Below, one piece after another: positions 6,321 through 55,242 of a DNA stretch of 64,000 nucleotides. Below the pieces are notes generated by a model. That model saw nothing but the letters and a program-made list of their open reading frames with translations, did not search any database and was not told the origin of the DNA. The position numbers were made by a program, and so were the translations under genes. Numbering within the stretch: the stretch's first letter is position 1; each line of letters begins with the position of its first letter. Source of the stretch: an uncultured cyanobacterium (lineage in GTDB: Bacteria; Cyanobacteriota; Cyanobacteriia; PCC-6307; Cyanobiaceae); the NCBI GenBank assembly GCA_963697335.1, contig CAVONQ010000002.1:160001-224000 (forward strand), in the 5' to 3' direction.

Positions 6321-7634
6321 TCAGGCGGGCAGCAGCCGGGCGGCGATCGGCGCCGCTGCCGCCAGCAGCGGGTTGGTGGTGTCGTGGCCGCCGGAGAGCA
6401 GCCGGGCCAGCTCTTCCTCCTCACTCTCATTGGGGAGCGGCACCACGTCTTCCTCGAGCTCCATCGAGGCCATGCCTCCGGCCTCCAGGCGCATGCAGCC
6501 CCCGGATTCGGAGCAGAGGATCACGCACAGGGGCGGCCGGCCCTCCGGAGCACAGATCAGGCGCAGGCCCACCAGGGCGCCGGGATGGATCTTGGGGCTG
6601 CCCACGGGCACGGGCATCAGCCGGAACTGCACCGGCGAGCCATCAGGGCGGCGGAACTCGGCGCCGATGCCCTCCTCATGGGCGCCGCTGCCGCAGCCAT
6701 CCACGGGCACGGCGTACGACTCCACCAGCTCCCAGCCGAGCCGGTCGGCCAGCCAGGCCGCCAGCAGCAGCCCCTTGAGCGGGTGGTCGCCCTCCACGTC
6801 GATGTCCAGCTGCACCACGTGCTCGAGGGCGTTGCGGCGCGGGGGCGGATCAAACACCATGGCCAGCGACTCCCGCCAGGTGCGCAGCCGCATCCAGTTG
6901 AGGTCGTTCACGGCCTGGCCGGCCGCGATCCGCTGCACCAGCAGGTCGATGCAGCGCCGGGGTCGGCCCAGGGAGCTGTCCACCACCAGGCGTCTGGAGG
7001 GCGGCGCCAGGGCCTCCAGCAGTTCGGGGGCCTCGTCGAGGCTGCTGTTCCACCACACCCAGCAGGGCAGGTCGTCGGCGATCAGGGGCAGCACCAGATC
7101 CAGCTGGCTCTTGAGCACCTCGCGGCCGCCGCGCAGCACCACCACGTCGCCGCAGGCGGGGCCGCGTCCACCCTCCTCGGGCAGGGGGCAGTAGGCGGCC
7201 ACAAGGGTTTCGAGCGGCCTGGACTCCTCCAGGGTGGGGGCCAGGGTGATCAGGCGGCGCGGCATGTGGGCACTGATCGCCCCGTCCACGAACTGACCGC
7301 GCTGGTCTTCGGCACTGGCGCTGCCCGCCTGCTGGCCCAGGCGCCAGGACAGGCGCTGGTCCATCACGGCGGTGCTGAACGGCAGGTCCAGATCCGGCAC
7401 GGCGGCCTTGGCCGCCTCGATCATGTCGGGGTCCAGCAGGCCCGTGAGCGGTCCGGGGGTGCGGCCGGTGCGGATCAGGTGCTGCTGCAGCCAGGAGGGT
7501 TCGTACACCACCAGGCTGAAGGTGGGTGCCCCGTTGGCATGCTGCAGCCCCTCCCCCCAGAGGTGCTCCAGGTAGGCAGCCACATCGGCGGGCGGCAGGG
7601 CGGTGGGGGCCTGGAGCGTGAGCTGGGGGGACAT
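6321..7634 (-). CDS. opcA: glucose-6-phosphate dehydrogenase assembly protein OpcA
   Basis: MSPQLTLQAP..., AAYCPLPEEG, PCWVWWN, DLNWMRLRTWRE; directly downstream of zwf. Confidence 0.92.
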   Translation of the reverse strand: MSPQLTLQAPTALPPADVAAYLEHLWGEGLQHANGAPTFSLVVYEPSWLQQHLIRTGRTPGPLTGLLDPDMIEAAKAAVPDLDLPFSTAVMDQRLSWRLGQQAGSASAEDQRGQFVDGAISAHMPRRLITLAPTLEESRPLETLVAAYCPLPEEGGRGPACGDVVVLRGGREVLKSQLDLVLPLIADDLPCWVWWNSSLDEAPELLEALAPPSRRLVVDSSLGRPRRCIDLLVQRIAAGQAVNDLNWMRLRTWRESLAMVFDPPPRRNALEHVVQLDIDVEGDHPLKGLLLAAWLADRLGWELVESYAVPVDGCGSGAHEEGIGAEFRRPDGSPVQFRLMPVPVGSPKIHPGALVGLRLICAPEGRPPLCVILCSESGGCMRLEAGGMASMELEEDVVPLPNESEEEELARLLSGGHDTTNPLLAAAAPIAARLLPA

Positions 7635-7671
7635 CAGGGGGTGGCGATGGTGGCTGGAGCTGGAGAGGGGA

Positions 7672-9195
7672 TCAGGGGCGGCGCCACACCAGGTCGTCCT
7701 CGGCCAGCAGGTTGTCGGCGGCCGCCGGACCCCAGGTGCGGGCCTCGTAGGGGTGCACCGGCAGCTGCCAGGGCGAATCCTCAATCAATTTGATCAGCGG
7801 GGTGTAGAGCCTCCAGGCGGCTTCCACCTCGTCGCTGCGGGTGAACAGGGTGGGTTCCCCCAGCATGGCGTCGGCGAGCAGCCGCACGTAGCCCTCGTCA
7901 CTGGGTTCGCCGAAGGAGTCGTCGTAGCTGAAGGCCATGTCCACCGGGCGGCTGCGCATGCCCGAACCCGGCGACTTCACCTCGAACTTGATCTCGGCGC
8001 CCTCGTCGGGCTGGATCCTCAGGATCAGCTGGTTCGGGGTCGGGGCGCCGCCGGCGGCATCGAACAGGTGCACTGGAGCCTTGCGGAAGGTGAGCACCAC
8101 TTCGGAGAGCCGTTTGGGCAGGCGCTTGCCGGTGCGCAGATAGAAGGGCACCCCCTGCCAGCGCCAGTTGTTGATGAACAGCTTCATGGCCACGTAGGTC
8201 TCGGTGGTGCTGTTCGGATTCACCCCCTGCTCCTCCCGGTAGCCCTGAATCGGCGTGCTGCGGCTGCCACCGGCGCTGTACTGGCCCCGCACGCAGCACT
8301 TCCAGGGCTCATTCTCATGGGCCAGGTGGGCGGCTTGCAGCACCTTGGCCTTCTCGTTGCGGATCGCCTCGGCGTCGAAGCGGCCGGGGGGCTCCATGGT
8401 GGTGAGCGCCAGCATCTGGGTGAGGTGGTTCTGCACCATGTCCCGCAGGGCGCCTGAGGTCTCGTAGTAGCCGGCCCGCTCTTCCACCCCCACGGTTTCG
8501 GCGGCCGTGATCTGCACGTTGGCGATGTAGTTGCGGTTCCAGATCGGCTCGAAGATGGTGTTGGCGAAGCGCATCACCAGGATGTTCTGAACCGTCTCCT
8601 TGCCGAGGTAGTGGTCGATCCGGAAGATCTGTTTCTCCTTGGCGCAGCCCAGCACCACCCGGTTCAGCTCCTGGGCACTGGCGTAGTCGGTGCCGAAGGG
8701 CTTTTCGATCACCACCCGGCTGCGCTCGCTGTCGCTGAGCAGACCGGCGGCCGCCAGGGCGCGGGTGCCGCTGCCGTAGAAGGCGGGCGACACGGAGAGA
8801 TAGAAGGTGCGGTTGCCCCGGGTGGCCCGCATCCGGTCGATCGCTTCGAGCCGCTCCCCCATGGTCACGATCGTGGCCGGGTTGGAGAGGTCGGCCGACT
8901 CGTAGAAGAGGCCAGCGGCGAAGTTCTCCCAGGCGGCGGGGTCTTCGGCGATCACCTGGCTGAGGGAGCTGGCCATGCGCGAGCGGAACTCCTCGTCGCT
9001 CCAGGGGCGGCGGGCGCAGCCGAGCACCGCGAACTCACTGGGCAGACGCCGCTGGCGGTGCAGCTCGAACAGGGCCGGGATCAGCTTGCGGTGGGTGAGG
9101 TCACCGCTGGCCCCGAAGATCACGATGATCTGGGGAGCGATGACCCGCTCCTGGCGCAGGCCGACCCGTAGCGGATTGGTGAGAACGGCGGCCAT
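7672..9195 (-). CDS. zwf: glucose-6-phosphate 1-dehydrogenase
   Basis: GASGDLTHRKL, IEKPFG, RIDHYLGKE active-site peptide. Confidence 0.97.
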   Translation of the reverse strand: MAAVLTNPLRVGLRQERVIAPQIIVIFGASGDLTHRKLIPALFELHRQRRLPSEFAVLGCARRPWSDEEFRSRMASSLSQVIAEDPAAWENFAAGLFYESADLSNPATIVTMGERLEAIDRMRATRGNRTFYLSVSPAFYGSGTRALAAAGLLSDSERSRVVIEKPFGTDYASAQELNRVVLGCAKEKQIFRIDHYLGKETVQNILVMRFANTIFEPIWNRNYIANVQITAAETVGVEERAGYYETSGALRDMVQNHLTQMLALTTMEPPGRFDAEAIRNEKAKVLQAAHLAHENEPWKCCVRGQYSAGGSRSTPIQGYREEQGVNPNSTTETYVAMKLFINNWRWQGVPFYLRTGKRLPKRLSEVVLTFRKAPVHLFDAAGGAPTPNQLILRIQPDEGAEIKFEVKSPGSGMRSRPVDMAFSYDDSFGEPSDEGYVRLLADAMLGEPTLFTRSDEVEAAWRLYTPLIKLIEDSPWQLPVHPYEARTWGPAAADNLLAEDDLVWRRP

Positions 9196-39019: not shown

Positions 39020-39862
39020 TTGGGTTCAGGCGTGACCGGGCCGTGGCTGGAAGGTTGGCTTCGGCTGCTGGATCTGCGTCTGTTGATCGATCTGGTCTGC
39101 GCCACGGCCCTGGGCATGGTGGTGCTGGGGCGGGTCACGGAGGCACGGACGCTGTGGCTGCTGCGGGGCTACCTGCTGCTGGTGGCGATGGCCTGGCTGG
39201 TGCAGCGCTTCGCCAACCTGCCCCTCACCACCAAGCTGGTGGATGCCCTGGTGCTGGCCTGCAGCCTCGCCCTGGCGATCCTCTGGCAGGGGGAGCTGCG
39301 GCGGCTGATGGAACTGCTGGGTACCGGCCGGCTGGGACTGCTGTTCGGCGACCGCAACCGCGATCAGCTGATGTCCAGCTCGGTGGGGGTGCTGAGTGAG
39401 GCGGCGGGGCGGCTCTCCCAGGCGCGGCGGGGCGGCCTGATCGTGGTGGACCTGGGCAGCGACCTGCGCCCCGAGGATTTCCTCAGCCCCGGCCTGGCCA
39501 TCGATGCCCAGCTCTCGGTGGACCTGCTGCTCAACCTCTTCGCCGCCGACACTCCCCTCCATGACGGCGCGGTGCTGGTGAAGGGCAACCGCATCCTGGC
39601 GGCGGGGGTGATCCTGCCCCTCTCCCGCCAGGGGATGAACCGCTACGGCACCCGCCACCTGGCCGCCATCGGCCTCACGGAGCGCTTCGATCGCTGCCTG
39701 GCGATCGTGGTGTCGGAGGAGACGGGCACCCTGGCCCTGGCCAGCCAGGGCCGCCTGGAGCGGCCGATCACCAGCAGCCGCCTTCATGATCTGCTCACCC
39801 GGGCGTTGGCCCAGTCCAGCGGGCGTACCGTGACCAAGGACACGCCGGATTCCCGCGGATGA
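39020..39862 (+). CDS. cdaA: diadenylate cyclase CdaA
   Basis: Three TM helices, QGELRR, TPLHDGA, GTRH, VVSEETG; sits between lysA and uppS. Confidence 0.9.
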
Positions 39863-40635
39863 GTCGCGCTCTGGCGACCAGCAGCACAAGGCACACCCAT
39901 CCTTTGCCGGCTGGGCTGGATCCCGCCCGGCTGCCGGCCCATGTGGCGGTGATCATGGACGGCAACGGCCGCTGGGCCCAGCGGCGCGGCCTGCCCCGGG
40001 TGGTGGGCCACCGGGCCGGCGTGGAAGCCCTCAAGCGCACCCTGAGGTTCTGCAGCGACTGGGGCGTGGGCGCCCTGACGGCCTACGCCTTCTCCACCGA
40101 AAACTGGAACCGGCCCGGCGAGGAGGTGAACTTCCTGATGGCCCTGTTCGAGCGGGTGCTGCAGCGGGAGATCGAGGGCCTGGAGCGGGAGCAGGTGTGC
40201 ATCCGCTTTCTGGGCGATCTGGAGCCCCTGCCCCTGGGCCTGCAGAACCTGATCGCCCAGGCCACCGCCCGCACCGCCGCCAGCACCGGCATCCGCTTCA
40301 ACGTGTGCACCAACTACGGCGGTCGGGCTGAGCTGGTGCGGGCAGCCCGGCGCCTGGCGCAGCGTGCCGCCCAGGGGGAGCTCGACCCCGCCAGCATCGA
40401 CGAGCAGTGCTTCGCCGCCGAACTGCACACCGCCGGCCAGCTGGATCCAGACCTGCTGATCCGCACCAGCGGCGAGCACCGCATCAGCAACTTCCTGTTG
40501 TGGCAGCTGGCCTACGCCGAGCTGCACATCACCGACGTGCTCTGGCCTGATTTCGACGGCGAGGCCCTGCACGCCGCCCTGCTGGACTACCAGAACCGGC
40601 AGCGCCGTTTCGGCGGCGTGGACCCGGCCCCTTGA
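39859..40635 (+). CDS. uppS: undecaprenyl/isoprenyl diphosphate synthase
   Basis: [37 protein letters not shown]. Confidence 0.96.
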
Positions 40636-40699
40636 GCACGCCCCCTTCCGGCGTCCCGACCGCCCACTCTTCCCGCCCTGTCCTTTCCCCTGTCCTGCC

Positions 40700-41689
40700 T
40701 TGCCCACCTCCGTGACCCTCCGCCACGACTGGACCCGCGCCGAGATCCAGGCCCTGCTGGAGGCGCCGCTGATGGAGCTGCTCTGGCAGGCCCAGCAGGT
40801 GCATCGCCAGGCCAACCCCGGCTACCGGGTGCAGCTGGCCTCGCTGCTGAGCGTCAAGACCGGCGGCTGTGAGGAGGACTGCGCCTACTGCCCCCAGTCG
40901 ATGCACCACAGCGCCGATGTGAGCGGCCGGCCCGAGCTCGCTGTCGAGCCGGTGCTGGCCCGGGCCCGGGCGGCCAAGCAGGCCGGCGCCCACCGCTTCT
41001 GCATGGGCTGGGCCTGGCGCGAGATCCGCGACGGCGCCCCCTTCGAGGCGATGCTGCAGATGGTGCGGGGCGTGCGCGAGCTGGGCCTGGAGGCCTGCGT
41101 GACCGCCGGCATGCTCAGCGACGCCCAGGCCACCAGGCTGGCCGAGGCGGGCCTCACCGCCTACAACCACAACCTCGACACCAGCCCGGAGCACTACGAC
41201 CGCATCATCAGCACCCGCACCTACCAGGAGCGGCTCGAGACCCTGGAGCGGGTGCGGCGGGCCGGGGTGACCCTCTGCTGCGGCGGCATCATCGGCATGG
41301 GGGAGGCGCTCAGCGACCGGGCCGGGCTGCTTGAGGTGCTGGCCAACCTCGATCCCCACCCCGAGAGCGTGCCGATCAACGCCCTGGTGGCGGTGGAGGG
41401 CACGCCGCTGCAGGAGCAGCCGCCGTTGGATCCGCTCGAGCTGGTGCGGATGGTGGCCACGGCCCGGATCCTGATGCCCAACAGCCGGGTGCGGCTCAGT
41501 GCCGGCCGCCAACAGCTCAGCCGCGAGGCCCAGATCCTCTGCCTGCTGGCCGGCGCCGATTCGATCTTCTACGGCGACACCCTGCTCACCACCGGCAACC
41601 CCGACGTGGCCGCCGACCAGGCCCTGCTCGCCGCCGCCGGCGTGACGGTGGAGGGGGCGGTGCCCGCTGCCGAGCTGTGCCCTGTCTGA
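40700..41689 (+). CDS. bioB: biotin synthase
   Basis: [15 protein letters not shown] radical SAM motif, YNHNLDT, VPIN, RLSAGR. Confidence 0.96.
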
Positions 41690-41699
41690 GCCGCTCCCC

Positions 41700-42659
41700 A
41701 TGGGCCTGAGCCTGGCCGCCTTCTACCGCTTCGCGGCCTTCGATCCGGCGGAGCTGCCGCCGCTGCGCCAGCGCCTGCTGGCCTGCGGCGAGGCCGGCGG
41801 GGTGCGGGGCACGGTGCTGCTGGCGCCGGAGGGGGTGAACGGCACGGTGAGCGGGCCAGCCGAGGCGGTGGAGGCGCTGCTGGTGCTGCTGCGGGCCGAT
41901 CCGCGCCTGGTCGCCCTGGAGGTGAAGCGGGCCGAGGCGCCCCAGCAGGCCTTTCACCGGCTCAAGGTGCGGCTCAAGCGCGAGATCGTGACCATGGGCG
42001 ATGCCTCCCTGCGGCCCTACCTGGCGGCGGCGGTGGGCCGCCACGTGGCGCCCGATCAGTGGGAGGCCCTGATTCAGGATCCAGACACCCTGGTGGTGGA
42101 CACCCGCAACGCCTACGAGGTGGCCCTGGGCAGCTTTGACGGCGCCATCGACCCCGGCACCTCCAGCTTCCGGGAGTTCCCCGCCTGGGTGGAGCAGCAG
42201 CTGGGGCCCCTGGTGGAGCAGCGCCGCCCCAAGGCGATCGCCCTGTTCTGCACCGGTGGCATCCGCTGTGAGAAGGCCACCGCCCACCTGCTGCAGCAGG
42301 GTTTTGAGGGGGTGCACCACCTGCATGGCGGCATCCTGCGCTACCTGGAGGAGCGGCCGCAGCAGGGCAGCAGCTGGCGGGGGGAGTGCTTCGTGTTCGA
42401 CCAGCGGGTGGCCGTGAATCACCAGCTGGAGCCGGGTGAGGCCAGCCTCTGCCACGGCTGCCGCATGCCCCTCACCGCCGCGGACCGCCAGCTGCCCAGC
42501 TACACCGAAGGGGTGAGCTGCCGCCACTGCGTCGACCGGCAGGGCAGTGCTGATCGGGAGCGCTACGCCGAGCGCCAGCGGCAGATGCAGCTGGCCCGCC
42601 AGCGGGGCGAGGATCACCTCGGCCGGCGCTTTCCGGTGCCGCCCAGCGGCGGTGGCTGA
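41700..42659 (+). CDS. trhO: rhodanese-domain tRNA uridine(34) hydroxylase-like protein
   Basis: EGVNGT, RLKREIVTMG, DTRN.YE, FCTGGIRCEK, GECFVFDQR. Confidence 0.88.
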   Translation: MGLSLAAFYRFAAFDPAELPPLRQRLLACGEAGGVRGTVLLAPEGVNGTVSGPAEAVEALLVLLRADPRLVALEVKRAEAPQQAFHRLKVRLKREIVTMGDASLRPYLAAAVGRHVAPDQWEALIQDPDTLVVDTRNAYEVALGSFDGAIDPGTSSFREFPAWVEQQLGPLVEQRRPKAIALFCTGGIRCEKATAHLLQQGFEGVHHLHGGILRYLEERPQQGSSWRGECFVFDQRVAVNHQLEPGEASLCHGCRMPLTAADRQLPSYTEGVSCRHCVDRQGSADRERYAERQRQMQLARQRGEDHLGRRFPVPPSGGG

Positions 42660-43668
42660 AGCGCGGCCGATCCTCTACAGCTTCCGCCGCTGTCCCTACG
42701 CGATCCGGGCGCGGCTGGCCCTGGCGGCGGCGGGGCTGGTGCCCGGCGTGGATCTGGAGCTGCGGGAGGTGAGCCTCAAGGTCAAGCCGCCGGAGCTGCT
42801 GGCGGCGTCGGCCAAGGGCACCGTGCCGGTGCTGGTGCAGGGGGAGCAGGTGATCGAGGAGAGCCTGGCGGTGATGGCCTGGGCCCTGGGGCGCCGGGAT
42901 CCCCAGGGCTGGTTGCAGGGCTGGAGCGCAGCCGAGGCCGCCGCCATCGAGGCGCTGATCGCGGAGAACGACGGGCCGTTCAAGTACCACCTGGACCGCT
43001 TCAAGTACGCCGGCCGGTTCGGCGCCGAGGGGGAGCAGGAGAACCATCGCCAGGCGGCCCTGGCCATCCTGCGCCGCTGGAGCCGGCACCTGGAGCCCGG
43101 CGGCTGGCTGCTGGGCGAGCGGCCGTCCCTGGCCGACATGGCCCTGCTGCCGTTTGTGCGCCAGTTCCGCCTGGCTGACCCGCAGCGCTTTGACGCCGAA
43201 CCGAGGCTGCAGCCCCTGCAGGCCTGGCTGGACCGCTTTCTGGCAGGAGCGGAGCTGGCGGCGGTGCTGGATCCGCCCTGGGCGGCCCGCCAGGCCTGGT
43301 GGTCGCCCGGCTGGCTGTATCACCTGGCCCTGGGCCCGGAGTGGCAGGCGGCGCAGGCCGCGGGCGTCTACCGCCGCTCCACCCGCGGCCGCTCGCTGGA
43401 GCAGGTGGGATTCATCCACCTCAGCCAGGCCCACCAGCTGGCGGCCACCCATGGCCGCTTCTATGTCGACCTCGACCCCGCCGAGCTGAAGCTGCTGGTG
43501 CTCGACCCCGCGCGGCTGGCGGCAGCGGGCGCGGTGGTGCGCCTGGAGCCAGCACCGGGCAGCGGTGAGCTGTTCCCCCACCTGCACGGGCCGCTGCCGC
43601 TGGAGGCGGTGCTGGCCGCCTGGCCCTGGCGATCCGAGGATGGCCCAACCCAGAGCTCACGATGGTGA
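42652..43668 (+). CDS. glutathione S-transferase fused to a C-terminal DUF952 domain
   Basis: YSFRRCPYAIRAR, KGTVPVL, ESL, FKYHLDRFKY, LADMALLPFVRQF, then in the same frame YRRSTRGRSLEQVGFIHLS...FPHLHGPLP. Confidence 0.85.
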   Translation: MAEARPILYSFRRCPYAIRARLALAAAGLVPGVDLELREVSLKVKPPELLAASAKGTVPVLVQGEQVIEESLAVMAWALGRRDPQGWLQGWSAAEAAAIEALIAENDGPFKYHLDRFKYAGRFGAEGEQENHRQAALAILRRWSRHLEPGGWLLGERPSLADMALLPFVRQFRLADPQRFDAEPRLQPLQAWLDRFLAGAELAAVLDPPWAARQAWWSPGWLYHLALGPEWQAAQAAGVYRRSTRGRSLEQVGFIHLSQAHQLAATHGRFYVDLDPAELKLLVLDPARLAAAGAVVRLEPAPGSGELFPHLHGPLPLEAVLAAWPWRSEDGPTQSSRW

Positions 43669-44696
43669 ACCCCTCCCGAGGTCCGGAACGGCTGGTGCGC
43701 GCCGGCCAGTGGCTGATCGCCCTGCTGTTCGCCTACTTCCTGATCCAGGTGGGCGGGGCGCTGATCGCCGACCTGCCCCTGCTCTCCAGAGCGCCCCAGC
43801 TCGAGCAGTTCCTCGACCAGCCTCGCCGGGCTGCGCTGGAGGCCGAGCTGCAACCACTTGAGAGCCGCCGCGAGGCGCTGCAGGAGCAGGCCGAGCGCCT
43901 GGGTGAGCGCCAGCAGCAGGCCCAGGCCCGCTACGAGCGCGAGAAGGCCAGCTTCGACAACTGGCGCTCCACCCGCTCGGCCACGGCCCAGTCCGACCAG
44001 AACCCGGAGGTGATCGCCCGGGCGCGCCAGCTCGATGGGCTGCTGCAGCAGCAACAGCAGCTCAGCGGCGAGCAGGCGGCGCTGACGGCCCGCTTGCGGG
44101 CGCTGCAGGCCTCGATCGCGGTGCCCCAGCAGCAACTCCAGCAGCTGCAGTCCGAGGCCCAGGGGCGCTTCCAGGCGGCCCGGCAGCGGGCGGAACTGCG
44201 GGCCTTCGGCATCCGGCTGTTGCTGGTGGGGCCGCTGCTGGGGCTGTCGCTGTGGCAGTTCCGCCGCTTCCGCCGCAGCGACCAGTGGCCCTTCGTGTGG
44301 GGCTTCCTGCTGTTCGGCCTGTTCGCCTTCTTCGTGGAGCTGGTGCCCTACCTGCCCAGCTTCGGCGCCTACATCCGCTACGGCGTGGGTGCCCTGCTCA
44401 CCTTCCTGGTGGGCCGGGCCCTGATCCGCTGGCTGAATGGCTACCTGGCGCGCAAGCAGCAGGAGCAGGCGGCGCCGCAGGAGCAGCGCCAGCACACGAT
44501 CCGCTACGAGAAGGCCCTGCAGTCCCTGGCGCGCAGCCAGTGCCCCAGCTGCGAGCGCAGCCTGCCGCGGCGGGAGGGCGTGCTGCCCAACTACTGCATG
44601 CACTGCGGCTTGCAGCTGCAGCACGACTGCAGCCAGTGCGGCGCGCTCCATTACGCCTGCTTCCCCTACTGCCCCAGCTGCGGCAAGCCGGCGTAA
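43662..44696 (+). CDS. membrane protein with coiled coil and C-terminal double zinc ribbon
   Basis: TM helix, long Gln/Glu-rich helix, 3 TM helices, then CPSC, CMHC, CSQC, CPSC. Confidence 0.82.
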   Translation: MVNPSRGPERLVRAGQWLIALLFAYFLIQVGGALIADLPLLSRAPQLEQFLDQPRRAALEAELQPLESRREALQEQAERLGERQQQAQARYEREKASFDNWRSTRSATAQSDQNPEVIARARQLDGLLQQQQQLSGEQAALTARLRALQASIAVPQQQLQQLQSEAQGRFQAARQRAELRAFGIRLLLVGPLLGLSLWQFRRFRRSDQWPFVWGFLLFGLFAFFVELVPYLPSFGAYIRYGVGALLTFLVGRALIRWLNGYLARKQQEQAAPQEQRQHTIRYEKALQSLARSQCPSCERSLPRREGVLPNYCMHCGLQLQHDCSQCGALHYACFPYCPSCGKPA

Positions 44697-45223
44697 TGGA
44701 GCCCGCCCTGCCGAGCCTGGCCCAGCTGGAAGCACAGGCCCGTCAGCGCGGCCTGTTGCTGCGGCTGCAGGTGGGGCGCCTGGCTGCGCTGGGCTGGAGC
44801 TTGCGGGTGGGGGTGGCCCGGCGCCAGGCTGGGGGCGGCCAGGAGGGGCCGCTGGTGCTGCTGGGGGAGCTGAAGGGCTGGGCATTGCCCACGGCCGCTG
44901 GCCTGCGGCTCGACACGATGCGGGTGCAGGGGGAGGACAGCGACGCAGTGGGGGCGCTGATCTGGGCAGCCACCTTCGCCTGGGCCCTGGAGGCCACCCC
45001 CTGCCGCCGGGCGCGGCTGCTGGCGATTCGCGATGACGACCGCCAGCACCGGCGCCTGGTGCGCTACTTCCGCCAGCTGGGCTTTGAGCCCCTGCAGGAG
45101 CTTGGCTCGGGCGTCGCCGACCTGCCGGCCCGTCTGGTGTGGGGCGGCGCCGGTCTGCTGATGCTGGGCGACTGCGCCGAGGGGCTGCGGCGCAGCGTCC
45201 GGCGGCTGGAGCGGCGGCGATGA
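44696..45223 (+). CDS. conserved hypothetical protein (GNAT-like)
   Basis: TAATG stop/start coupling; GELKGWA, LDTMRV, LLAIRDD..QH.RLVRYF..LGF, RLVWGG. Confidence 0.72.
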   Translation: MEPALPSLAQLEAQARQRGLLLRLQVGRLAALGWSLRVGVARRQAGGGQEGPLVLLGELKGWALPTAAGLRLDTMRVQGEDSDAVGALIWAATFAWALEATPCRRARLLAIRDDDRQHRRLVRYFRQLGFEPLQELGSGVADLPARLVWGGAGLLMLGDCAEGLRRSVRRLERRR

Positions 45224-45233
45224 CACCAGGGCT

Positions 45234-45809
45234 GGCCTGACCCTGCTGATGGAGGGGACGCTGAAGGCGGGCGATCTCCTTCCGCTCCAACGTGATCCGC
45301 ACCGTCCAGGGCTCGGAGATCGTGCTGCCCAACGCCATGATTACCGCCACCCCGGTGCACTACATCCATTACCTGAACTCCCAGGGGCGTGTGGATCTGG
45401 CGGTGCGGGTGAAGCACGGTGAGATCCGCTGCTGGTCACCAAGGCGCTGCTGAAGGTGGCTTTGGAGGGGCTGGGGGTGCTGGCTGACCCCGCCCCCAAG
45501 GTGGTGCAGCACCAGATCGGCCGCGATTCAGATCCAGCTGTAGCTGCTCAGTGCCATTCACGAAGCTGAGCGCATCAGCCTCCGGTTGTTCAGCTTGGGC
45601 CGCGGTGAGTTCTTCGGCGAACTGCTTCTGCACGCGCCCTGCCCACTGCCAGGTGGGTGCAGGAAGATGCCGTGCTGTTCGAAATCCCGATCGGCCAAGT
45701 GCGCCTGCTGCTGGAGAGCCGGCCCGACTTTGCCGAGATCGCGCTCCAGGCCCTGGCTCGCCGGGGCGATGTGTTTTTGAGCTACGAGAGCTGCCTGCGC
45801 GAGCGGTGA
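45234..45809 (+). pseudogene. decayed MscS-family mechanosensitive channel with cyclic-nucleotide-binding domain
   Basis: Consecutive peptides in shifting frames: GLTLLMEGTLKAGD / ISFRSNVIRTVQGSEIVLPN..GRVDLAVRVKHG / DPLLVTKALLKVA..VLADPAPKV / LFSLGRGEFFGEL / EDAVLFEIP..LLESRPDFAE. Several frameshifts and deletions; TM region absent. Confidence 0.75.
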
Positions 45810-45901
45810 GCGGGAGTTAGGCCATCCTTGGAGTTGTGCGATGGCTGCATCAGAAAGACGCACAAGTGCAATAAGAGTGCACAATTGATGCCGGGCGCAA
45901 G

Positions 45902-47809
45902 CTGCTTAGGTGTAACTTTGAAGATGATCCTGGCGACCAAGCCCGCATTGATGCGGCGTTAAAGCTTCGGAATCAGGAAGCGCTTGAGGCGTCAAAACGC
46001 GCTACAGAGCGCGCAAAGAACGGGCCACTGCACCGCCCCAACAACGACGAAGCGTTGCTGAAAGGCGCTTCCTGGGCGATGAGCTTCACCAAGGGTCTCA
46101 CGCACACCCAAGAACTTGGCCTGGTTGCCGACAATGCCTATGCCCAGCAATTGCGTGACGCCATCTGCGGCGGTGCGATAGCTGCGTTTACCAACGATGT
46201 GGTCGTCCCTACCCTGGAACATGGCCGGCGGAAGTGGGAAGCGCCCACCGCGGGCTTTGTTTTCGAGCTGCAAGGTCCTGATGCTCAGGCAGTCACAATG
46301 CCCCCAGCACCGGCACTTAATCGCGTAGACGGCAGCTTTGATGAGCTGGCCTTTGAGATGGCTGAGGTCTATGAGCTTGCGCTCTTGCGCGATGTGCCGT
46401 TCTCAGCCTTCCAGAGGGGCAGTACAGAAGCCCGAGTGGCCAGCGCAATTGACCGACTTAATTCTCTTCCCTACGCGAAACACGGTTTGCCATTCGGCCT
46501 CCCGGATCCTGTCAATGGGAGCCCCCGTCCGCGTCAATCAGAGGGTGGCAGGCTTACTGCGCAGAAGGCTTTCCGTGGATCTAGCTATGGCGTGGATCAT
46601 GGCCCCTATTTGTCCCAGTTCATGCTGATCGGTAGCTCTGAGGGACCGAGTACGCCGCTTGAGGATCAGGGACAAATCGCGTTCGGCAATCAGTTCATCG
46701 ATCAGCGTGTGCGTAATACGACTCTGAAGGACTGGATGATCAAGTGGAAGGACTGGCTCGCGGTGCAGCAAGGGGCCGACGTCCGTTTCAACGCCACGCT
46801 CTTCGCGCCAGGCAAGCGTTTCATCCATACGCCGCGTGATCTCGCCACCTATGTTCACGATGACGCTCTCTATCAGGCCTATTTGAATGCTTGTCTGATC
46901 TTGCTGAGCATGCGCGCTCCATTCGATCCAGGATTCGCCGAGCTTGCTGGTGGAGAAATCGACGGGAAGAGTAATAATTCAACAGGCTTTGCCCTGTTTG
47001 GTGCTCCGCACATCCTGAGCCTGGTTACCGAGGTTGCGACCCGCGGCCTGAAGGCCGTGCGCTTCCAGAAGTTTCAGAACCATCTGCGGCTGCGGCCGGA
47101 GGCGCTGGCCGGACGTTTAGCGCGCGCTGATCAAATCGAGACGTTGCCGCAGGTCCAGTGCATCGATGCCATCAGAGGTCAATTCAAGGCAATGGCATCT
47201 CAGCTCGCACCAGTTATGGGCGAGATCCGAGCTCACAATCTCAGCATGGGTGGCGAGGATGAGCCGCTCCTACCCATGGCCTTCCAGGAGGGATCACCGA
47301 TGCACCCCGCCTATGGCGCGGGGCACGCAACGGTTGCCGGTGCGTGTGTGTCGGTGCTGAAGGCTTTCTTTAACACCAGCGCTGAGTTGCGCTGGGTGAA
47401 CGGCAGTGTGCGGTTCTTAGATCCAAGCGATATCAAGGAGAAGAACTGTGGAATCCCTGTGCAGTTCGTTACTGCGGACGGTGGTGCGCGGCTGGAGATG
47501 CAGCAAGTGGAGAAACCGTTGACACTCCTCGGTGAACTCAACAAGCTGGCGGCCAACATTTCTATCGGTCGCAATATGGCCGGCGTCCACTACTTCTCTG
47601 ATTACTACGACAGTCTGCGGATGGGAGAGGAAATTGCAGTAGGCATCCTAGAAGAACAGGCCCATCTCTACCCTGCTAAAGGGGGCGAAGATAGTTTTGA
47701 GATGTCCCTTGTTCCCTACGATGCACCCTCGCCGAGGCACGAGATTAGATTGGTCAAGGGTTCTCGAATCACCAAGAGCATGCTTCGTAATCCGCCAAAG
47801 GTTAGCTGA
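45902..47809 (+). CDS. vanadium-dependent haloperoxidase
   Basis: KAVRFQKFQNHLRLRPE, EGSPMHPAYGAGHATVAG and GRNMAGVHYFSD vanadate-binding motifs; SFTKGL near the N-terminus. Frame is open from 45875; the first canonical start is TTG 46055, so the true start is uncertain. Confidence 0.92.
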   Translation: MLRCNFEDDPGDQARIDAALKLRNQEALEASKRATERAKNGPLHRPNNDEALLKGASWAMSFTKGLTHTQELGLVADNAYAQQLRDAICGGAIAAFTNDVVVPTLEHGRRKWEAPTAGFVFELQGPDAQAVTMPPAPALNRVDGSFDELAFEMAEVYELALLRDVPFSAFQRGSTEARVASAIDRLNSLPYAKHGLPFGLPDPVNGSPRPRQSEGGRLTAQKAFRGSSYGVDHGPYLSQFMLIGSSEGPSTPLEDQGQIAFGNQFIDQRVRNTTLKDWMIKWKDWLAVQQGADVRFNATLFAPGKRFIHTPRDLATYVHDDALYQAYLNACLILLSMRAPFDPGFAELAGGEIDGKSNNSTGFALFGAPHILSLVTEVATRGLKAVRFQKFQNHLRLRPEALAGRLARADQIETLPQVQCIDAIRGQFKAMASQLAPVMGEIRAHNLSMGGEDEPLLPMAFQEGSPMHPAYGAGHATVAGACVSVLKAFFNTSAELRWVNGSVRFLDPSDIKEKNCGIPVQFVTADGGARLEMQQVEKPLTLLGELNKLAANISIGRNMAGVHYFSDYYDSLRMGEEIAVGILEEQAHLYPAKGGEDSFEMSLVPYDAPSPRHEIRLVKGSRITKSMLRNPPKVS

Positions 47810-47998
47810 AAGATATCTCTGGTCCGTGATGCTCTGTCAGCGTTAAAGTTGTCAGGTGGTTGTGATCTGTCTGGCCTGACCACTCGCCAGCTCGCATAGC
47901 GTTTGGACCGCTGATAGAGAGCACGTCAATTCCGCCATCGCTTACTTTTAAGAAATGTCGACCCGATCCAATCACTTACGGGTTTACTGCTAGCAAGT

Positions 47999-49459
47999 AT
48001 GGCGAGACGACCGAACGTTATGGGCATTCCTCTGGTTCTGATTCATGGCTACTCCGATAGTAGTGATGGCTTTGAAGAATGGCGCATGGCGCTTGTTGCG
48101 AAGCGTGGTCTGAAAAGCAAAGACGTTCATGTGGTCAACTATGTCTCTCTTTCTGACGAAGTTGCGATCGGCGATATTGCTGAGGGTTTAGATCTTGCGC
48201 TGCGCGACCAAGCGCACCTGGGCAAGGATGACCCATTTGATGCCATTGTGCATTCCACCGGAATGTTGGTGATTCGCGCCTGGTTGTCGCGCTACAGCTC
48301 CATGAGCCGTCCTGGGCGCTTGCGCCATCTGATTGCCTTGGCTCCCGCTACCAATGGATCGCCAGTGGCCCACAAGGGGAGGAGCTGGCTTGGCGCGATG
48401 GTGAAGGGAAGCAAGAAGTGGAATGGCCCGGATTTTATGGAAGCCGGCAATGAGGTGCTGCACGCGTTGGAGCTGGGTAGCCCCTTCACCTGGCAATTGG
48501 CAGAGAAAGACCTATTTGGCGATGGCAATACCGCCAGATTTGAGAAAGGAGAGAAAAGTCCCTTCGTGTTCACACTTTGTGGCGACAAGGATCTTGGCCG
48601 GCTGGCAAATCTCGCCACCAAAGCTGTGGGAACGAAGATCAGAGGGTCCGACGGGGTGGTGCGCTGGGCAGGCGCCGCCCTCAACTCACGGCGCCTGTTG
48701 GTGGACTTCACCGACCCCTCAGGCATGGACAAGGAAGCCGGCCGCACACAAGCATCGATTTCAGACTGGAGTAACCAGAACAATATCCTGGTGCTGTGGC
48801 CTGGATTGAACCACGGCACGATCATGCAGCCCGATCAGGATGCTCGCCTTCTGAACCTTGTGTCGGACGCTCTGGACGTTCAAGACAATGATTCGTTTGA
48901 GGAATGGAATCAACAGGCTATCGAGAAGGCAGCGGAGGCCCGTGGCCGGGAGCTACCGCCGGAGCCTTGGCAGCAGTTCGTCATACGGGTAGTCGATGAA
49001 CGCGGTGATGGCGTCAATGACTGGACCATGGGTCTGAGCATTCAGAAGAAGGGGGAGCGATCGGTGGAGGCTGTGGAGCTGGATGATCTCCACCCCTGTG
49101 AGCGGGATAAAAGCTATCGTTGCCTTCATGTGAACCTCCGTGAGGCAGGCTTGGAGACACCAGAGGAGCTTGCCAAGATTAAACTATTCCAGATGGTGCT
49201 GTTTATGAATACCAAATCAACCTATACAGTCTATGAGGCCAGCAAGGCAGACAACACGAAGCTGTGGAAAGACATCGGGAAGGGGACTTCGGAGCTCACC
49301 ATCGACCTGACAAAGTGGCTTGCACCGAATGATGACAACTTTGTTCTACCGATGGCATTTACCACGACCTACATTGAGTTTCGCGTCAATCGAGAGCCTT
49401 CTGTTCGGCTTGATGGTGCCGCTAGGATCTGCCATATTCAGCCCCCTAAATCTCATTAG
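47999..49459 (+). CDS. lipase/esterase-like alpha/beta hydrolase with C-terminal extra domain
   Basis: LIHGYSD oxyanion segment, IVHSTG nucleophile elbow, LAPATNGSP, SDGVV (Asp), LNHGTI (His). Start is ATG 47999 or 48020. Confidence 0.82.
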   Translation: MARRPNVMGIPLVLIHGYSDSSDGFEEWRMALVAKRGLKSKDVHVVNYVSLSDEVAIGDIAEGLDLALRDQAHLGKDDPFDAIVHSTGMLVIRAWLSRYSSMSRPGRLRHLIALAPATNGSPVAHKGRSWLGAMVKGSKKWNGPDFMEAGNEVLHALELGSPFTWQLAEKDLFGDGNTARFEKGEKSPFVFTLCGDKDLGRLANLATKAVGTKIRGSDGVVRWAGAALNSRRLLVDFTDPSGMDKEAGRTQASISDWSNQNNILVLWPGLNHGTIMQPDQDARLLNLVSDALDVQDNDSFEEWNQQAIEKAAEARGRELPPEPWQQFVIRVVDERGDGVNDWTMGLSIQKKGERSVEAVELDDLHPCERDKSYRCLHVNLREAGLETPEELAKIKLFQMVLFMNTKSTYTVYEASKADNTKLWKDIGKGTSELTIDLTKWLAPNDDNFVLPMAFTTTYIEFRVNREPSVRLDGAARICHIQPPKSH

Positions 49460-49699
49460 AGTTTCGCTTTGGTGGCCTATGCCAACCCGGTGTCTAACTG
49501 TACGTGGAGCTATCCAGGCCTGGCGTTCAGAAGGGGGTCTTGATCAGACTTCATCCATTAAACATTAAATCCTTCCCACTCCTCTGGGCTCAACACACAG
49601 TTCAGCGGCTTTGCGGTGAAGGAATGCGTTAGTCCTGATGGACAGCCAGCTCAGCTTCCCTGTTCTGTAGCCCCACCCAGAAGCCCGTAAGCCTTGTAA

Positions 49700-52760
<3,061 letters not shown>

Positions 52761-52859
52761 CGCGCTGGTGCCCCGCCATCATCCCCATCAGCACCCCGTG
52801 GCCAGCCAGCACCGGGGCCTGCAGGGCAGTGTCACACTGGCGTCCTGCTGGCGTCCCCC

Positions 52860-53015
52860 ATGGCCGAGACGAACTCCGACTCCTCCCTGAAATCGCGCCT
52901 GATCAGTGCCCTGGTGGTGCTTGGCGTGCTGGCTGGCCTGGCCGTGGTGGTGTGGTCCACCGTTGTGATGCTCGATCTCAAGCACCTCAACACCTCCGGC
53001 TTCACGCTGCCCTGA
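52860..53015 (+). CDS. small single-TM membrane protein (51 aa)
   Basis: MAETNSDSSLKSRLISALVVLGVLAGLAVVVWSTVVMLDLKHLNTSGFTLP; host-like codons; fills the intergenic gap. Confidence 0.6.
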   Translation: MAETNSDSSLKSRLISALVVLGVLAGLAVVVWSTVVMLDLKHLNTSGFTLP

Positions 53016-53071
53016 AGGCCCCTGGTCCCTAAGTTGCCCCCAGCAACCGCCTTTCAGGCAGCCAGATCCCC

Positions 53072-53677
53072 ATGGATGTGTTCGAGGCCATCGTCAGCCG
53101 ACGCGCCGTCAAGCAGTTCGATCCCAGCCACCGGCTGACGCCTGCGGAGGAGCGCCGCCTCCTGGAGGCCACCATCCAGGCCCCCACCAGCTTCAACATC
53201 CAGCACTGGCGCTTTGTGATCCTGCGGGATCCCGAGCTGCGCGCCCGCATCCGCACCGAGCTGGGCAACGACCAGGCCCAGATCACAGACGCCTCCCTGC
53301 TGGTGCTGTTCACGGCCGACACCAGGGCCTTCGCCAAGAACCCCGAGCGCTACTGGGCCAACGCCCCCAAGGAGGTGGCCGAGTTGCTGGTGGGCTGGAT
53401 GGGCCCCTTCCACGAAGGACGCGAGTGGCTGCAGCGCGATGAGGCCCAGCGCTCGATCGGCATGGCGATGCAGACCATGATGCTGGCCGCCACCGGCATG
53501 GGCTATCAGAGCTGCCCGATGATCGGCTTCGAGATCGAACAGCTGGCCCAGCTGATCCAGCTGCCTTCCGACCATGTGATGGGCCCGCTGGTGGCCATCG
53601 GCAAGGGCACCAAGGAGCCCTGGCCCAAGCCCGGTCAGGTGCCTCTGGAGGAGCTGGTGGTGGAGAACCACTTCTAA
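53072..53677 (+). CDS. nitroreductase family protein
   Basis: AIVSRRAVK, APTSFNIQHWRF, GYQSCPMIGF, VAIGK. Confidence 0.92.
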   Translation: MDVFEAIVSRRAVKQFDPSHRLTPAEERRLLEATIQAPTSFNIQHWRFVILRDPELRARIRTELGNDQAQITDASLLVLFTADTRAFAKNPERYWANAPKEVAELLVGWMGPFHEGREWLQRDEAQRSIGMAMQTMMLAATGMGYQSCPMIGFEIEQLAQLIQLPSDHVMGPLVAIGKGTKEPWPKPGQVPLEELVVENHF

Positions 53678-53759
53678 GCACTTCGATTTTGAGTGAATCA
53701 GGGGGCTACTTGTCCGTGCTAGGCTGAGTAAATAATTAGGAAAAGTGTGCGGTTAATTT

Positions 53760-55202
53760 ATGCGAATTACGCAGGCTTTTCGAAATAGGTTTGTCCGTAT
53801 TGGGTCGCTGGCGCTGATTGCAGCCTCGCGTTTGGTCGCTGCTGAACCCGCTTTGTCCGCAGAGCAGCTGGCCCCGGCCAAAGTCGGGGAGATTGCCGAG
53901 GAGGCCTTTGTCTACGGCTTCCCGATGGTGATGAATTACGCCGTTTTCCATGCGTATTTCATTGATCAATCAGGGCCAGACTTCAAGGCGCCAATCAATC
54001 AGCTCTACAACACGGCTCGTGTCTACAGTCCCAAGGACACCACGGTCGTCACGCCCAACAGCGACACGCCCTATTCCTTCGTGGCCATGGACCTGAGGGC
54101 AGAGCCCTTCGTGATCTGCAACCCCGAAATTGAGAAGTCGCGCTATTTCTCGGTGCAGTTGGTGGATCTTTACACCTTCAACTATGGTTACATCGGTAGC
54201 CGTGCAACCGGCAATGCGGCCGGCTGCGCCATGATCACCGGCCCAGGCTGGAGCGGCACCACGCCGGAGGGCATTCGCAAGGTGTTTCGCAGCGAAACGG
54301 ACTTCTCCATCGCTATTTTCCGCACCCAGTTGTTTGATGCGGCTGATCTCAGCAACGTCAAGACAATCCAATCCCGCTACAGGGCCCTCACGCTCTCCAG
54401 CTTCGTGGGTAAGCCAGCCCCGCCAGCCGCTGCCCCGATCAGCTGGCCCAGCATCGACACCAAGCTCGCTGATGCCGACCCCTTCTCCTATCTGAATTTC
54501 GTCCTGGCCTTCAGCCCCCCAGTGGGTCCGGCAGCCGTGGAGCTGCCCATGCGGAAGCGCTTTGCCTCCATCGGCGTTGAGGCCGGCAAGCCCTTCTCCA
54601 CGGACAGCCTCACCCCAGAGCAGAAGCTGGAGATGGAGCAGGGCATGAAGCGTGGCCTGGAGAAGGTCAAGCAGAAGGCGGCCACGCTGGGGGCCCAGGA
54701 GAATGGCTGGCGTGTATCCCTCGATGGCTTTGGCGATCGCCAGGCCCTGGGCGGTGATTTCACGCTCCGGGCTGCCGCAGCAATGGCTGGGATCTACGGC
54801 AACGATGCCGTGGAAGCGCTGTATCCCCTGCTCTCCACCGACAGCGACGGCAACAAGCCCGATACCAGCACCAACCGCTACACGCTCACCTTTGCGGCCG
54901 GTCAGCTACCACCAGTCAACGCTTTCTGGTCGGTGACGATGTACGACGGTACAACGCAGCTACTGATTGACAACCCGATCAATCGCTATCTGATCAACTC
55001 CCCGATGCTGCCAAGCCTGAACAAGAATCCAGATGGTTCACTGACCATCTACATCCAGAAGGACACTCCGGGCCAGGAGAAAGAATCGAACTGGCTGCCC
55101 GCTCCCGATGGTCCGATCTACGCCGTGATCCGCCTGTACTGGCCCAAGGAGTCGGCCTTGGATTCAACCTGGAAACCCCCGGTGCTTGAGCTGGCGCGCT
55201 GA
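53760..55202 (+). CDS. DUF1254/DUF1214 domain exported protein
   Basis: Signal peptide, YGFP, VVTPNSDTPYS, FWSVTMY, NWLPAP..RLYWP. Confidence 0.88.
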   Translation: MRITQAFRNRFVRIGSLALIAASRLVAAEPALSAEQLAPAKVGEIAEEAFVYGFPMVMNYAVFHAYFIDQSGPDFKAPINQLYNTARVYSPKDTTVVTPNSDTPYSFVAMDLRAEPFVICNPEIEKSRYFSVQLVDLYTFNYGYIGSRATGNAAGCAMITGPGWSGTTPEGIRKVFRSETDFSIAIFRTQLFDAADLSNVKTIQSRYRALTLSSFVGKPAPPAAAPISWPSIDTKLADADPFSYLNFVLAFSPPVGPAAVELPMRKRFASIGVEAGKPFSTDSLTPEQKLEMEQGMKRGLEKVKQKAATLGAQENGWRVSLDGFGDRQALGGDFTLRAAAAMAGIYGNDAVEALYPLLSTDSDGNKPDTSTNRYTLTFAAGQLPPVNAFWSVTMYDGTTQLLIDNPINRYLINSPMLPSLNKNPDGSLTIYIQKDTPGQEKESNWLPAPDGPIYAVIRLYWPKESALDSTWKPPVLELAR

Positions 55203-55242
55203 TCGGGTCTACGGTCGGCCTAACCAAAAGCCCAGGGCAACG

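Follow-up and report, generated by a model that had tools for sequence, protein, structure and literature searches.

Predicted vanadium bromoperoxidase and PlaB-family phospholipase genes in a low-GC islet at a plastic locus of a picocyanobacterium

A 64,000-nucleotide stretch of DNA from an uncultured cyanobacterium of the Cyanobiaceae (GenBank assembly GCA_963697335.1, contig CAVONQ010000002.1, positions 160,001 to 224,000 of the forward strand), here called the window, contains two adjacent genes that a preliminary description had taken for a foreign cassette of a vanadium haloperoxidase and a lipase-like hydrolase, acquired together and perhaps acting together. Both are on the + strand, and both lie within a low-GC, strain-specific islet of 3853 bp (45810..49662, no strand). 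The first, gene 1 (45875..47809), is predicted to encode a vanadium-dependent bromoperoxidase (VBPO) with a complete vanadate site, and the second, gene 2 (47999..49459), a phospholipase A/lysophospholipase of the PlaB family. The spacer between them (47810..48019, + strand) has a GC content of approximately 0.50 and measures 189 nt to the ATG at 47999, the distance given originally, or 210 nt to the ATG at 48020.

Composition and borders of the islet

The host is a high-GC picocyanobacterium. Its genome (G000 in our numbering) is 2.58 Mb in 18 contigs with a GC content of approximately 70%; relatives at the class level have genomes of 3-6 Mb, and the family contains the Synechococcus of public records. 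Along the window, the GC content is 0.70-0.75 until approximately 45.2 kb, 0.50-0.60 at approximately 45.5-49.7 kb and 0.69-0.75 thereafter. The overall and third-position GC contents (GC3) are 0.572 and 0.628 for gene 1, and 0.548 and 0.624 for gene 2, while the GC3 of the neighbouring genes (uppS, bioB-like, rhodanese, GST-DUF952, orf43662 and katG) is 0.89-0.96. The compositional contrast, which had been noticed as a lower GC content and many A/T-ending codons, is real and far beyond chance.

The borders were placed by comparison with G012, the closest relative, a complete genome from the same genus that is collinear with the window, sharing 94% identity over 39862-45239 and 92% over 49663-53675. 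Similarity to G012 ends at 45806 and restarts at 49663. The left border of the islet is formed by the remnant of a gene that we name MscS-like (45240..45809, + strand), which runs through three shifting frames, has a C-terminal end that resembles a cyclic-nucleotide-binding domain and stops at a TGA at 45807-45809; both names are our own reading of the translated sequence. In G012 this gene is intact, with 471 codons. Two blocks of the remnant match G012, 45273-45526 at 87% and 45548-45806 at 84%, and two deletions, by which approximately 420 and 345 nt of the G012 sequence have gone, are accompanied by frameshifts.

In G012, the place of the islet is taken by another cargo, of 2.4 kb with 42-47% GC and two minus-strand open reading frames (ORFs) of 184 and 378 aa. 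This cargo corresponds to reverse-complement coordinates 6770-8610 of our locus L104 (G012:C1:1852000-1868000), and its 378-aa ORF has a P-loop-like N-terminus.

Near-identical short contigs from sequencing runs of three other studies span both genes and both borders. The islet is therefore not an assembly chimera, and the arrangement exists in natural populations. That the islet is foreign and was acquired horizontally, as first proposed, is well supported by its composition, by its absence from relatives in the genus and by the other cargo at the corresponding site in G012.

The usual marks of mobility were not seen. The islet contains no ORF of integrase size, and the nearest tRNA genes are 11.4 and 63.1 kb away. 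No pair of direct repeats brackets it, as matches between the borders were at chance level only, and an Rfam scan of the islet gave no match at E ≤ 0.1. No terminator-like or sigma-70-like site was found in the spacer by a weak consensus scan, which returned fewer sites overall than in shuffled sequences.

Identity and integrity of the two genes

When the translation of gene 1 was used to query PDB with phmmer, AmVHPO of Acaryochloris marina (5LPC, E 1.2e-110) and the VBPOs of Corallina (1QHB, E 1.4e-103; 1UP8, E 1.1e-101) were returned. Together with the further AmVHPO entries 8Q20-22, these can be aligned with residues 119-616 of gene 1 at E values of 1e-110 to 1e-101. Identity is limited to about half of the residues, and gene 1 lacks a canonical start at the homologous N-terminus. 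However, all residues of the phosphate/vanadate site are identical, and the brominating Arg is common to all. The residues K399 (codon 47069-71), R407-P408 (R407, 47093-95), H477 (47303-05), G483-H484 (47321-26), R566 (47570-72) and H572 (47588-90) match 5LPC and are invariant in the alignments of relatives; with the codons checked, the three vanadate-binding motif blocks of the preliminary description are all in place, as is its assignment of gene 1 to the vanadium haloperoxidases. For the Arg, the catalytic His, the Gly-His and the ligand His we take the roles to be those given in the literature on vanadium haloperoxidases (VHPOs).

Three residues ahead of the active-site Lys, in the motif R396-F-Q-K399, gene 1 has an Arg (R396, codon 47060-62). 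According to one study (PMC11871015), Lys428 is the active-site Lys of AmVHPO and Arg425 the position that switches the enzyme from bromide to chloride specificity, with Arg three residues before the Lys specifying bromide and Trp or Ser chloride. Read from the sequence, R396-x-x-K399 is the bromoperoxidase (brominating) state, and the predicted product of gene 1 is a Corallina/Acaryochloris-type vanadium bromoperoxidase, a member of a known family. Its closest relatives are a 75% identical protein on a metagenome contig and proteins annotated as 'vanadium-dependent haloperoxidase' in metagenome-assembled genomes (MAGs) of Pseudomonadota, which are 69-70% identical. A Pfam-A hmmscan of the gene 1 product (P0001, 45875-47806) returned no family at E ≤ 0.01, unlike the precomputed annotation, in which PF22778 is assigned to the product (P0123) and to all 120 listed relatives; a difference in version or filter may account for this. 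An NCBIfam scan of gene 1 returned nothing.

Johnson, Palenik and Brahamsha (2011, J Phycol) reportedly showed that a VBPO from the marine Synechococcus sp. CC9311 is functional. The marine Synechococcus VBPOs that we compared (L019 and L022) are also patchily distributed accessory genes, but they share only 53-55% identity with gene 1, belong to another VBPO clade and host lineage, and have a homoserine O-acetyltransferase-like gene downstream and no PlaB-like gene.

The start of gene 1 is problematic. Position 45875, from which the gene had been taken to run, is not a start codon but opens the frame directly behind a TAA (45872-45874). The open frame has 644 codons, and its first canonical in-frame starts are a TTG at 46055 (584 aa) and an ATG at 46079 (576 aa), the latter being the choice of the gene caller used for the genome (P0123). 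No in-frame ATG, GTG or TTG occurs between the TAA at 45872 and the TTG at 46055. A GTG at 45877 and ATGs at 45888 and 45924 are out of frame, and an ATT at 45884 and a CTG at 45902 are in frame. The starts of homologues align approximately 45-60 codons upstream of the TTG at 46055, within the first 16 or so codons of the open frame, and codons 18-68 retain residues that are conserved in the homologues (RIDAAL..R..EA and GPLHR.N.DE). An independent 733-nt metagenome contig that spans 45380-46090 differs by three substitutions and has no gaps, so the missing start is not an assembly error. It lowers confidence in a full-length enzyme, but not in family membership. From these features, gene 1 would either yield a product that is 60-68 residues shorter, start at a rare codon, or be freshly disabled.

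If gene 1 were a pseudogene in the first stage of decay, then the phospholipase would be the only functional product and the islet would be eroding in the same way as the gene to its left. The missing in-frame start at the position used by homologues, confirmed by the independent contig, would fit this, as would the deletions and frameshifts in the adjoining MscS-like gene; in addition, both VBPO copies of Synechococcus sp. MIT S9507 contain a TAG, and VBPO loss therefore does happen in the family. Against this, all 644 codons remain open and every residue of the vanadate site is intact. The TTG at 46055 and the ATG at 46079 would give proteins of 576-584 aa, and several of the listed homologues are 570-590 aa, while the in-frame ATT and CTG might serve as rare starts. 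We consider decay of gene 1 doubtful.

Gene 2 encodes 486 aa from the ATG at 47999 or 479 aa from the ATG at 48020. The latter is probably the start, as the consensus of homologues begins at M8, and the gene caller's product (P0003) is also 479 aa. The only real match in PDB was PlaB of Legionella (6ZTH, a chain of 489 residues), which aligned with residues 31-233 at E 6.7e-19; Pfam returned only sub-threshold matches to alpha/beta-hydrolases. The VHSTG motif of gene 2, V84-H85-S86-T-G88, aligns to THSTG in 6ZTH, and V84 and H85-G88 are invariant in 26/26 members of the family. Invariant in the same number of aligned relatives are S86 (codon 48254-56), D218 (48650-52) and H272 (48812-14), which bears out the complete Ser-Asp-His set reported originally.

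The PlaB structural study (bioRxiv 10.1101/2020.09.01.246603) gives the catalytic triad as Ser85/Asp203/His251, with the Ser in THSTG, and describes a D203N variant. In the 6ZTH chain, the residue that pairs with D218 of gene 2 is the Asn of 'GSNGVV', which is position 203 by count, and the crystallised chain would appear to carry the D203N variant. H272 is assigned as the triad His by conservation and order, and not by a residue-level alignment to H251 of the Legionella pneumophila enzyme (LpPlaB).

An AlphaFold model of gene 2, built from the family alignment, had a pLDDT of 72.5 (medium confidence) and a pTM of 0.76. With Foldseek, the whole model matched 6ZTI and 6ZTH over 522-531 columns (TM 0.65-0.69, E approximately 2e-20), whereas other folds matched over the hydrolase half only (TM ≤ 0.35). 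The model is all-beta from approximately residue 324 to 467, and its C-terminal beta-sandwich domain begins at approximately residue 320. For LpPlaB, the same study places the phospholipase domain in the first 300 or so residues, followed by a C-terminal beta-sandwich that is bilobed, novel in fold and essential for activity, and states that tetramers, which are stabilised by NAD(H), are inactive (bioRxiv 10.1101/2020.09.01.246603). LpPlaB and the product of gene 2 are thus alike in length (474 vs 486 aa), in having two domains, in a Ser within xHSTG and in the Asp at the position of D203, but they share only approximately 19% identity in the structural alignment, and LpPlaB has THSTG where gene 2 has VHSTG. 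The virulence role of LpPlaB is not implied for gene 2, whose host is a free-living phototroph.

A second PlaB, PaPlaB (PA2927) of Pseudomonas aeruginosa, was compared through its published description. Its catalytic Ser is reported to lie in VHSTG, identical to gene 2, and it is a cell-associated intracellular phospholipase B that becomes less active when it oligomerises; its substrates are phospholipids of the cell itself, and it has an effect on biofilm (bioRxiv 10.1101/2021.06.15.448513). The VHSTG elbow and the additional C-terminal region of gene 2, both correctly noticed at first, are hallmarks of the PlaB family and not oddities. Similarly, 'lipase-like hydrolase' was right as far as it went, and the 6ZTH match and the model allow the more specific name. 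Taking sequence and model together, gene 2 is predicted to encode a full-length, intact PlaB-family phospholipase and belongs to a large known family, with 1594 proteins at E ≤ 1e-5 among 7999 candidates scored.

Distribution and neighbours of the two gene families

The contexts of relatives of both genes were compared in three surveys. For gene 1, the best 80 of 118 relatives in species-representative genomes were taken with up to 8 kb of flanking sequence. For gene 2, 80 of 390 relatives in genomes, with 10-kb flanks, and 80 of 492 relatives in metagenomes, with a median locus of 6.7 kb, were taken. The PlaB-like relatives were found via the family alignment; scans with a pattern from gene 2 alone gave one genome locus and no metagenome locus.

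A PlaB-like gene was found at none of the 80 VBPO loci, and a VBPO gene at none of the 80 PlaB-like loci in genomes. One of the 80 PlaB-like metagenome loci (L188), or 1/160 PlaB-like loci overall, had a VBPO gene nearby. No family of neighbours recurs in more than 8/80 VBPO loci. The closest VBPOs among named genomes (G421 and G422, 69-70% identical) are in genomes without a PlaB-like gene, and the closest PlaB-like gene in a named genome (G423, 61%) is in one without a VBPO, in what is a sparse sample; relatives closer still to each gene (72-75% identity) sit on short metagenome contigs. An alpha/beta-hydrolase gene downstream of marine Synechococcus VBPOs had seemed to offer a recurring theme of VBPO plus hydrolase, and was set aside as the homoserine O-acetyltransferase-like housekeeping gene mentioned above.

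In the picocyanobacterial loci L107/L191, L108 and L189, the PlaB-like gene occurs singly, its low GC content setting it apart from the native high-GC genes around it, and the neighbours are unrelated. L188 and MIT S9507 share 84% DNA identity over the PlaB-like gene and 140-200 nt on each side only. As the identity is confined to the gene and its short flanks, we conclude that this gene is mobile by itself, in the form of an approximately 1.8-kb module. Codon usage was of little help, as the correlation between genes 1 and 2 (0.61) and those of each with native genes (0.70 and 0.74) do not separate one donor from two.

The two genomic contexts in which a VBPO and a PlaB-like gene do approach each other elsewhere differ. 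L188 is a 5.2-kb contig with 43% GC in which a VBPO gene lies directly upstream of the PlaB-like gene, in divergent orientation and approximately 275 nt away. This VBPO is 37-38% identical to the other VBPOs compared, and no relative of its type was found among genome contigs; the PlaB-like genes of L188 and MIT S9507 share 86% identity. A stretch of approximately 1.8 kb that follows the PlaB-like gene on L188 (3116-4896) has no ORF of at least 90 aa and no Rfam match.

The VBPO of MIT S9507 that lies 12 kb from the PlaB-like gene belongs to the marine Synechococcus clade (92% identity with L022), and the genes in between encode an integrase (tyrosine recombinase), GmrSD_N, Schlafen/AlbA_2-HATPase_c_4, methyltransferase and amidase proteins. 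This stretch resembles a defence island, and the VBPO at the locus (L106, 254001-274000) is split into two overlapping ORFs with an internal TAG. A further copy of the VBPO, partial and also containing a TAG, is found at approximately 1.63 Mb.

Among the 31 other genomes of the genus, the PlaB-like gene was not found, and a VBPO was present in two, with only 38-39% identity to gene 1. In a sample of 401 genomes from the family, G000 included, three have a PlaB-like gene, 16 a VBPO and two both, namely G000 and MIT S9507 (G390). In a class-level sample, 81/400 other genomes (82/401 with G000) have a VBPO and six a PlaB-like gene. The patchy occurrence of vanadium haloperoxidases in cyanobacteria, noted at the outset, is evident at both levels. 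Four of the six class-level PlaB-like genomes also carry a VBPO, always on another contig. This figure, set against 81/400, was considered as support for a pair and not counted, as three of the four genomes come from one VBPO-rich family, in which 3/4 genomes have a VBPO, as the PlaB-like matches there span N-terminal residues 5-302 only, and as the two genes are on separate contigs. PlaB-like relatives were not found on viral contigs.

The expectation that homologues of the two genes would be neighbours elsewhere was thus not borne out, and joint acquisition and joint action of the two genes are mostly unsupported, as the nearest relatives are in separate genomes, each without the other gene, and as the PlaB-like gene travels as a single-gene module. 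A conserved two-gene cassette is mostly not supported.

The locus in related genomes and the adjacency of the two genes

The locus itself is plastic, as seen from the differing arrangements in the genus. In addition to the other cargo in G012, a GNAT-like gene in G002 and G019 is followed by a short remnant of orf52065 and a nitroreductase gene, with katG 160-190 kb off. In G009 the nitroreductase gene comes first and katG is 2.3 kb beyond, and in G013 neither is found within 14 kb. In the window, katG (catalase-peroxidase; 49778..51997, + strand; Pfam PF00141, E 1.1e-69) forms the right flank and has native composition (GC3 0.89). Its product is 96% identical to that of G012, where the gene is syntenic, and as G012 has different cargo, the position of katG next to this site is older than the islet. 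A functional partnership of katG with gene 1 was rejected on this ground, and because KatG was found near none of the 80 VBPO loci. katG is present in 26/32 genomes of the genus, but not in a fixed place: it adjoins the site in G000, G012 and G009, in contrast to G002 and G019.

We conclude, with a probability of roughly 60%, that the islet consists of two individually mobile accessory genes that work independently at a plastic locus, and that their adjacency came about as foreign genes built up at a site prone to recombination, and does not reflect a conserved operon. By analogy with its family, the product of gene 1 would hold vanadate at His572 and, with H2O2 as the oxidant, turn bromide or iodide into hypohalous acid, a reaction that would use up peroxide and lead to halogenation of nearby nucleophiles. 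The product of gene 2 would be a cell-associated hydrolase, with Ser86-Asp218-His272 as its triad, that attacks acyl esters of membrane glycerolipids, and it is probably restrained by self-association, as are the two PlaB enzymes that have been studied.

Several observations weigh against independent accumulation. In the window, the genes are co-oriented, have near-equal GC and GC3, and are 190-210 nt apart with no detected terminator; the similar composition, the shared orientation and the short gap fit joint acquisition and co-transcription. In L188, a PlaB-like gene adjoins a divergently oriented VBPO gene from another clade, and both genes occur 12 kb apart in MIT S9507. Two of the three family-sample genomes with a PlaB-like gene, one of them the window's own, have a VBPO, compared with 16/401 overall. 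In all, VBPOs of three clades are found near PlaB-like genes of two lineages, which is unlikely to result from random placement.

It is possible, though in our view improbable, that the two genes are functionally paired, an arrangement brought about repeatedly by selection, in which lipid hydrolysis feeds bromination and the output is chemical defence or allelopathy. The adjacency, co-orientation and similar GC3 in the window would be expected of such a pair, as would the involvement of three VBPO clades (that of the window, 69% identical to proteins of Pseudomonadota MAGs, and those of L188 and MIT S9507) and the co-occurrence in 2/3 PlaB-like genomes of the family sample. In addition, as reported in PMC11106770, AmVHPO expressed in Escherichia coli formed traces of bromoform if oleate was supplied and catalase inhibited, which shows that fatty-acid metabolism can feed VHPO chemistry. 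Should the genes cooperate, acyl chains or lysolipids freed by the lipase would meet hypobromous acid made by the other enzyme. A more detailed version, to which we attach the same low likelihood, has PlaB releasing unsaturated fatty acids or lysolipids from the cell's own membranes or from those of competitors or grazers, with hypobromous acid halogenating these or their breakdown products to toxic or volatile organobromines.

However, the surveys found both genes together at none of the VBPO loci and at one of the PlaB-like loci, neither orientation nor spacing is conserved, and the genomes of the nearest relatives have one gene only. In MIT S9507 the genes are separated by an integrase gene and others, and the VBPO has an internal stop, while in the four class-level genomes that contain both, the genes are on different contigs, and three of these genomes are from one VBPO-rich family. 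The co-occurrence in the family sample is also inflated, because it was the window's genome that prompted the question, and genes in islands cluster for non-functional reasons. A search of the literature for a gene cluster of a vanadium haloperoxidase and a phospholipase found no paper on such a pairing. It is a little less likely still that PlaB-type modules and VBPOs have been combined repeatedly in picocyanobacterial islands because they cooperate, as a minimal convergent two-enzyme halogenation system. The two adjacencies and the single 12-kb proximity would then be its instances; acyl substrates would come from lipid hydrolysis, or damage to membranes would be linked to bromination driven by peroxide, and brominated lipids or volatile organobromines would serve as a chemical weapon.

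The variable islet, and the occurrence of both genes amid GmrSD- and Schlafen-type genes in MIT S9507, could also suggest a new type of anti-phage or anti-grazer defence system. This we regard as very improbable, as neither protein is matched by PADLOC models or PHROGs, no relative was found on a viral contig, the pairing is not conserved, and both families have ordinary, non-defence roles where they have been studied.

Independent accumulation of the two genes, which we favour, bears on gene flux in picocyanobacteria, as the locus is recombination-prone and sister strains differ in the foreign cargo that it contains. It also places a bromoperoxidase clade otherwise found in Pseudomonadota MAGs in a high-GC picocyanobacterium, which is relevant to the question of which organisms make organobromines in coastal and sediment habitats. 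The PlaB family, so far studied in Legionella and Pseudomonas, extends to free-living phototrophs as a lone, mobile 1.8-kb gene. Were the repeated proximity of VBPO and PlaB-like genes, a weak signal, to prove meaningful, it would indicate that enzymatic bromination is connected to lipid hydrolysis in a way not yet described.

Three further features of the surroundings were recorded. To the right of katG, a second insertion relative to G012 spans 53676-55240, where G012 has 36 bp, and contains a DUF1254/DUF1214 gene (53760-55202, + strand) with a GC content of 0.60 and a GC3 of 0.75. To the left of the islet, orf43662 (43662-44696) is a native gene of 344 aa whose C-terminus is a weak double zinc ribbon; no copy of it was found at the loci of G002, G019 and G009. 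Between it and the MscS-like remnant, a native GNAT-like ORF of approximately 100 aa (44918-45223) is conserved in 32/32 genomes of the genus.

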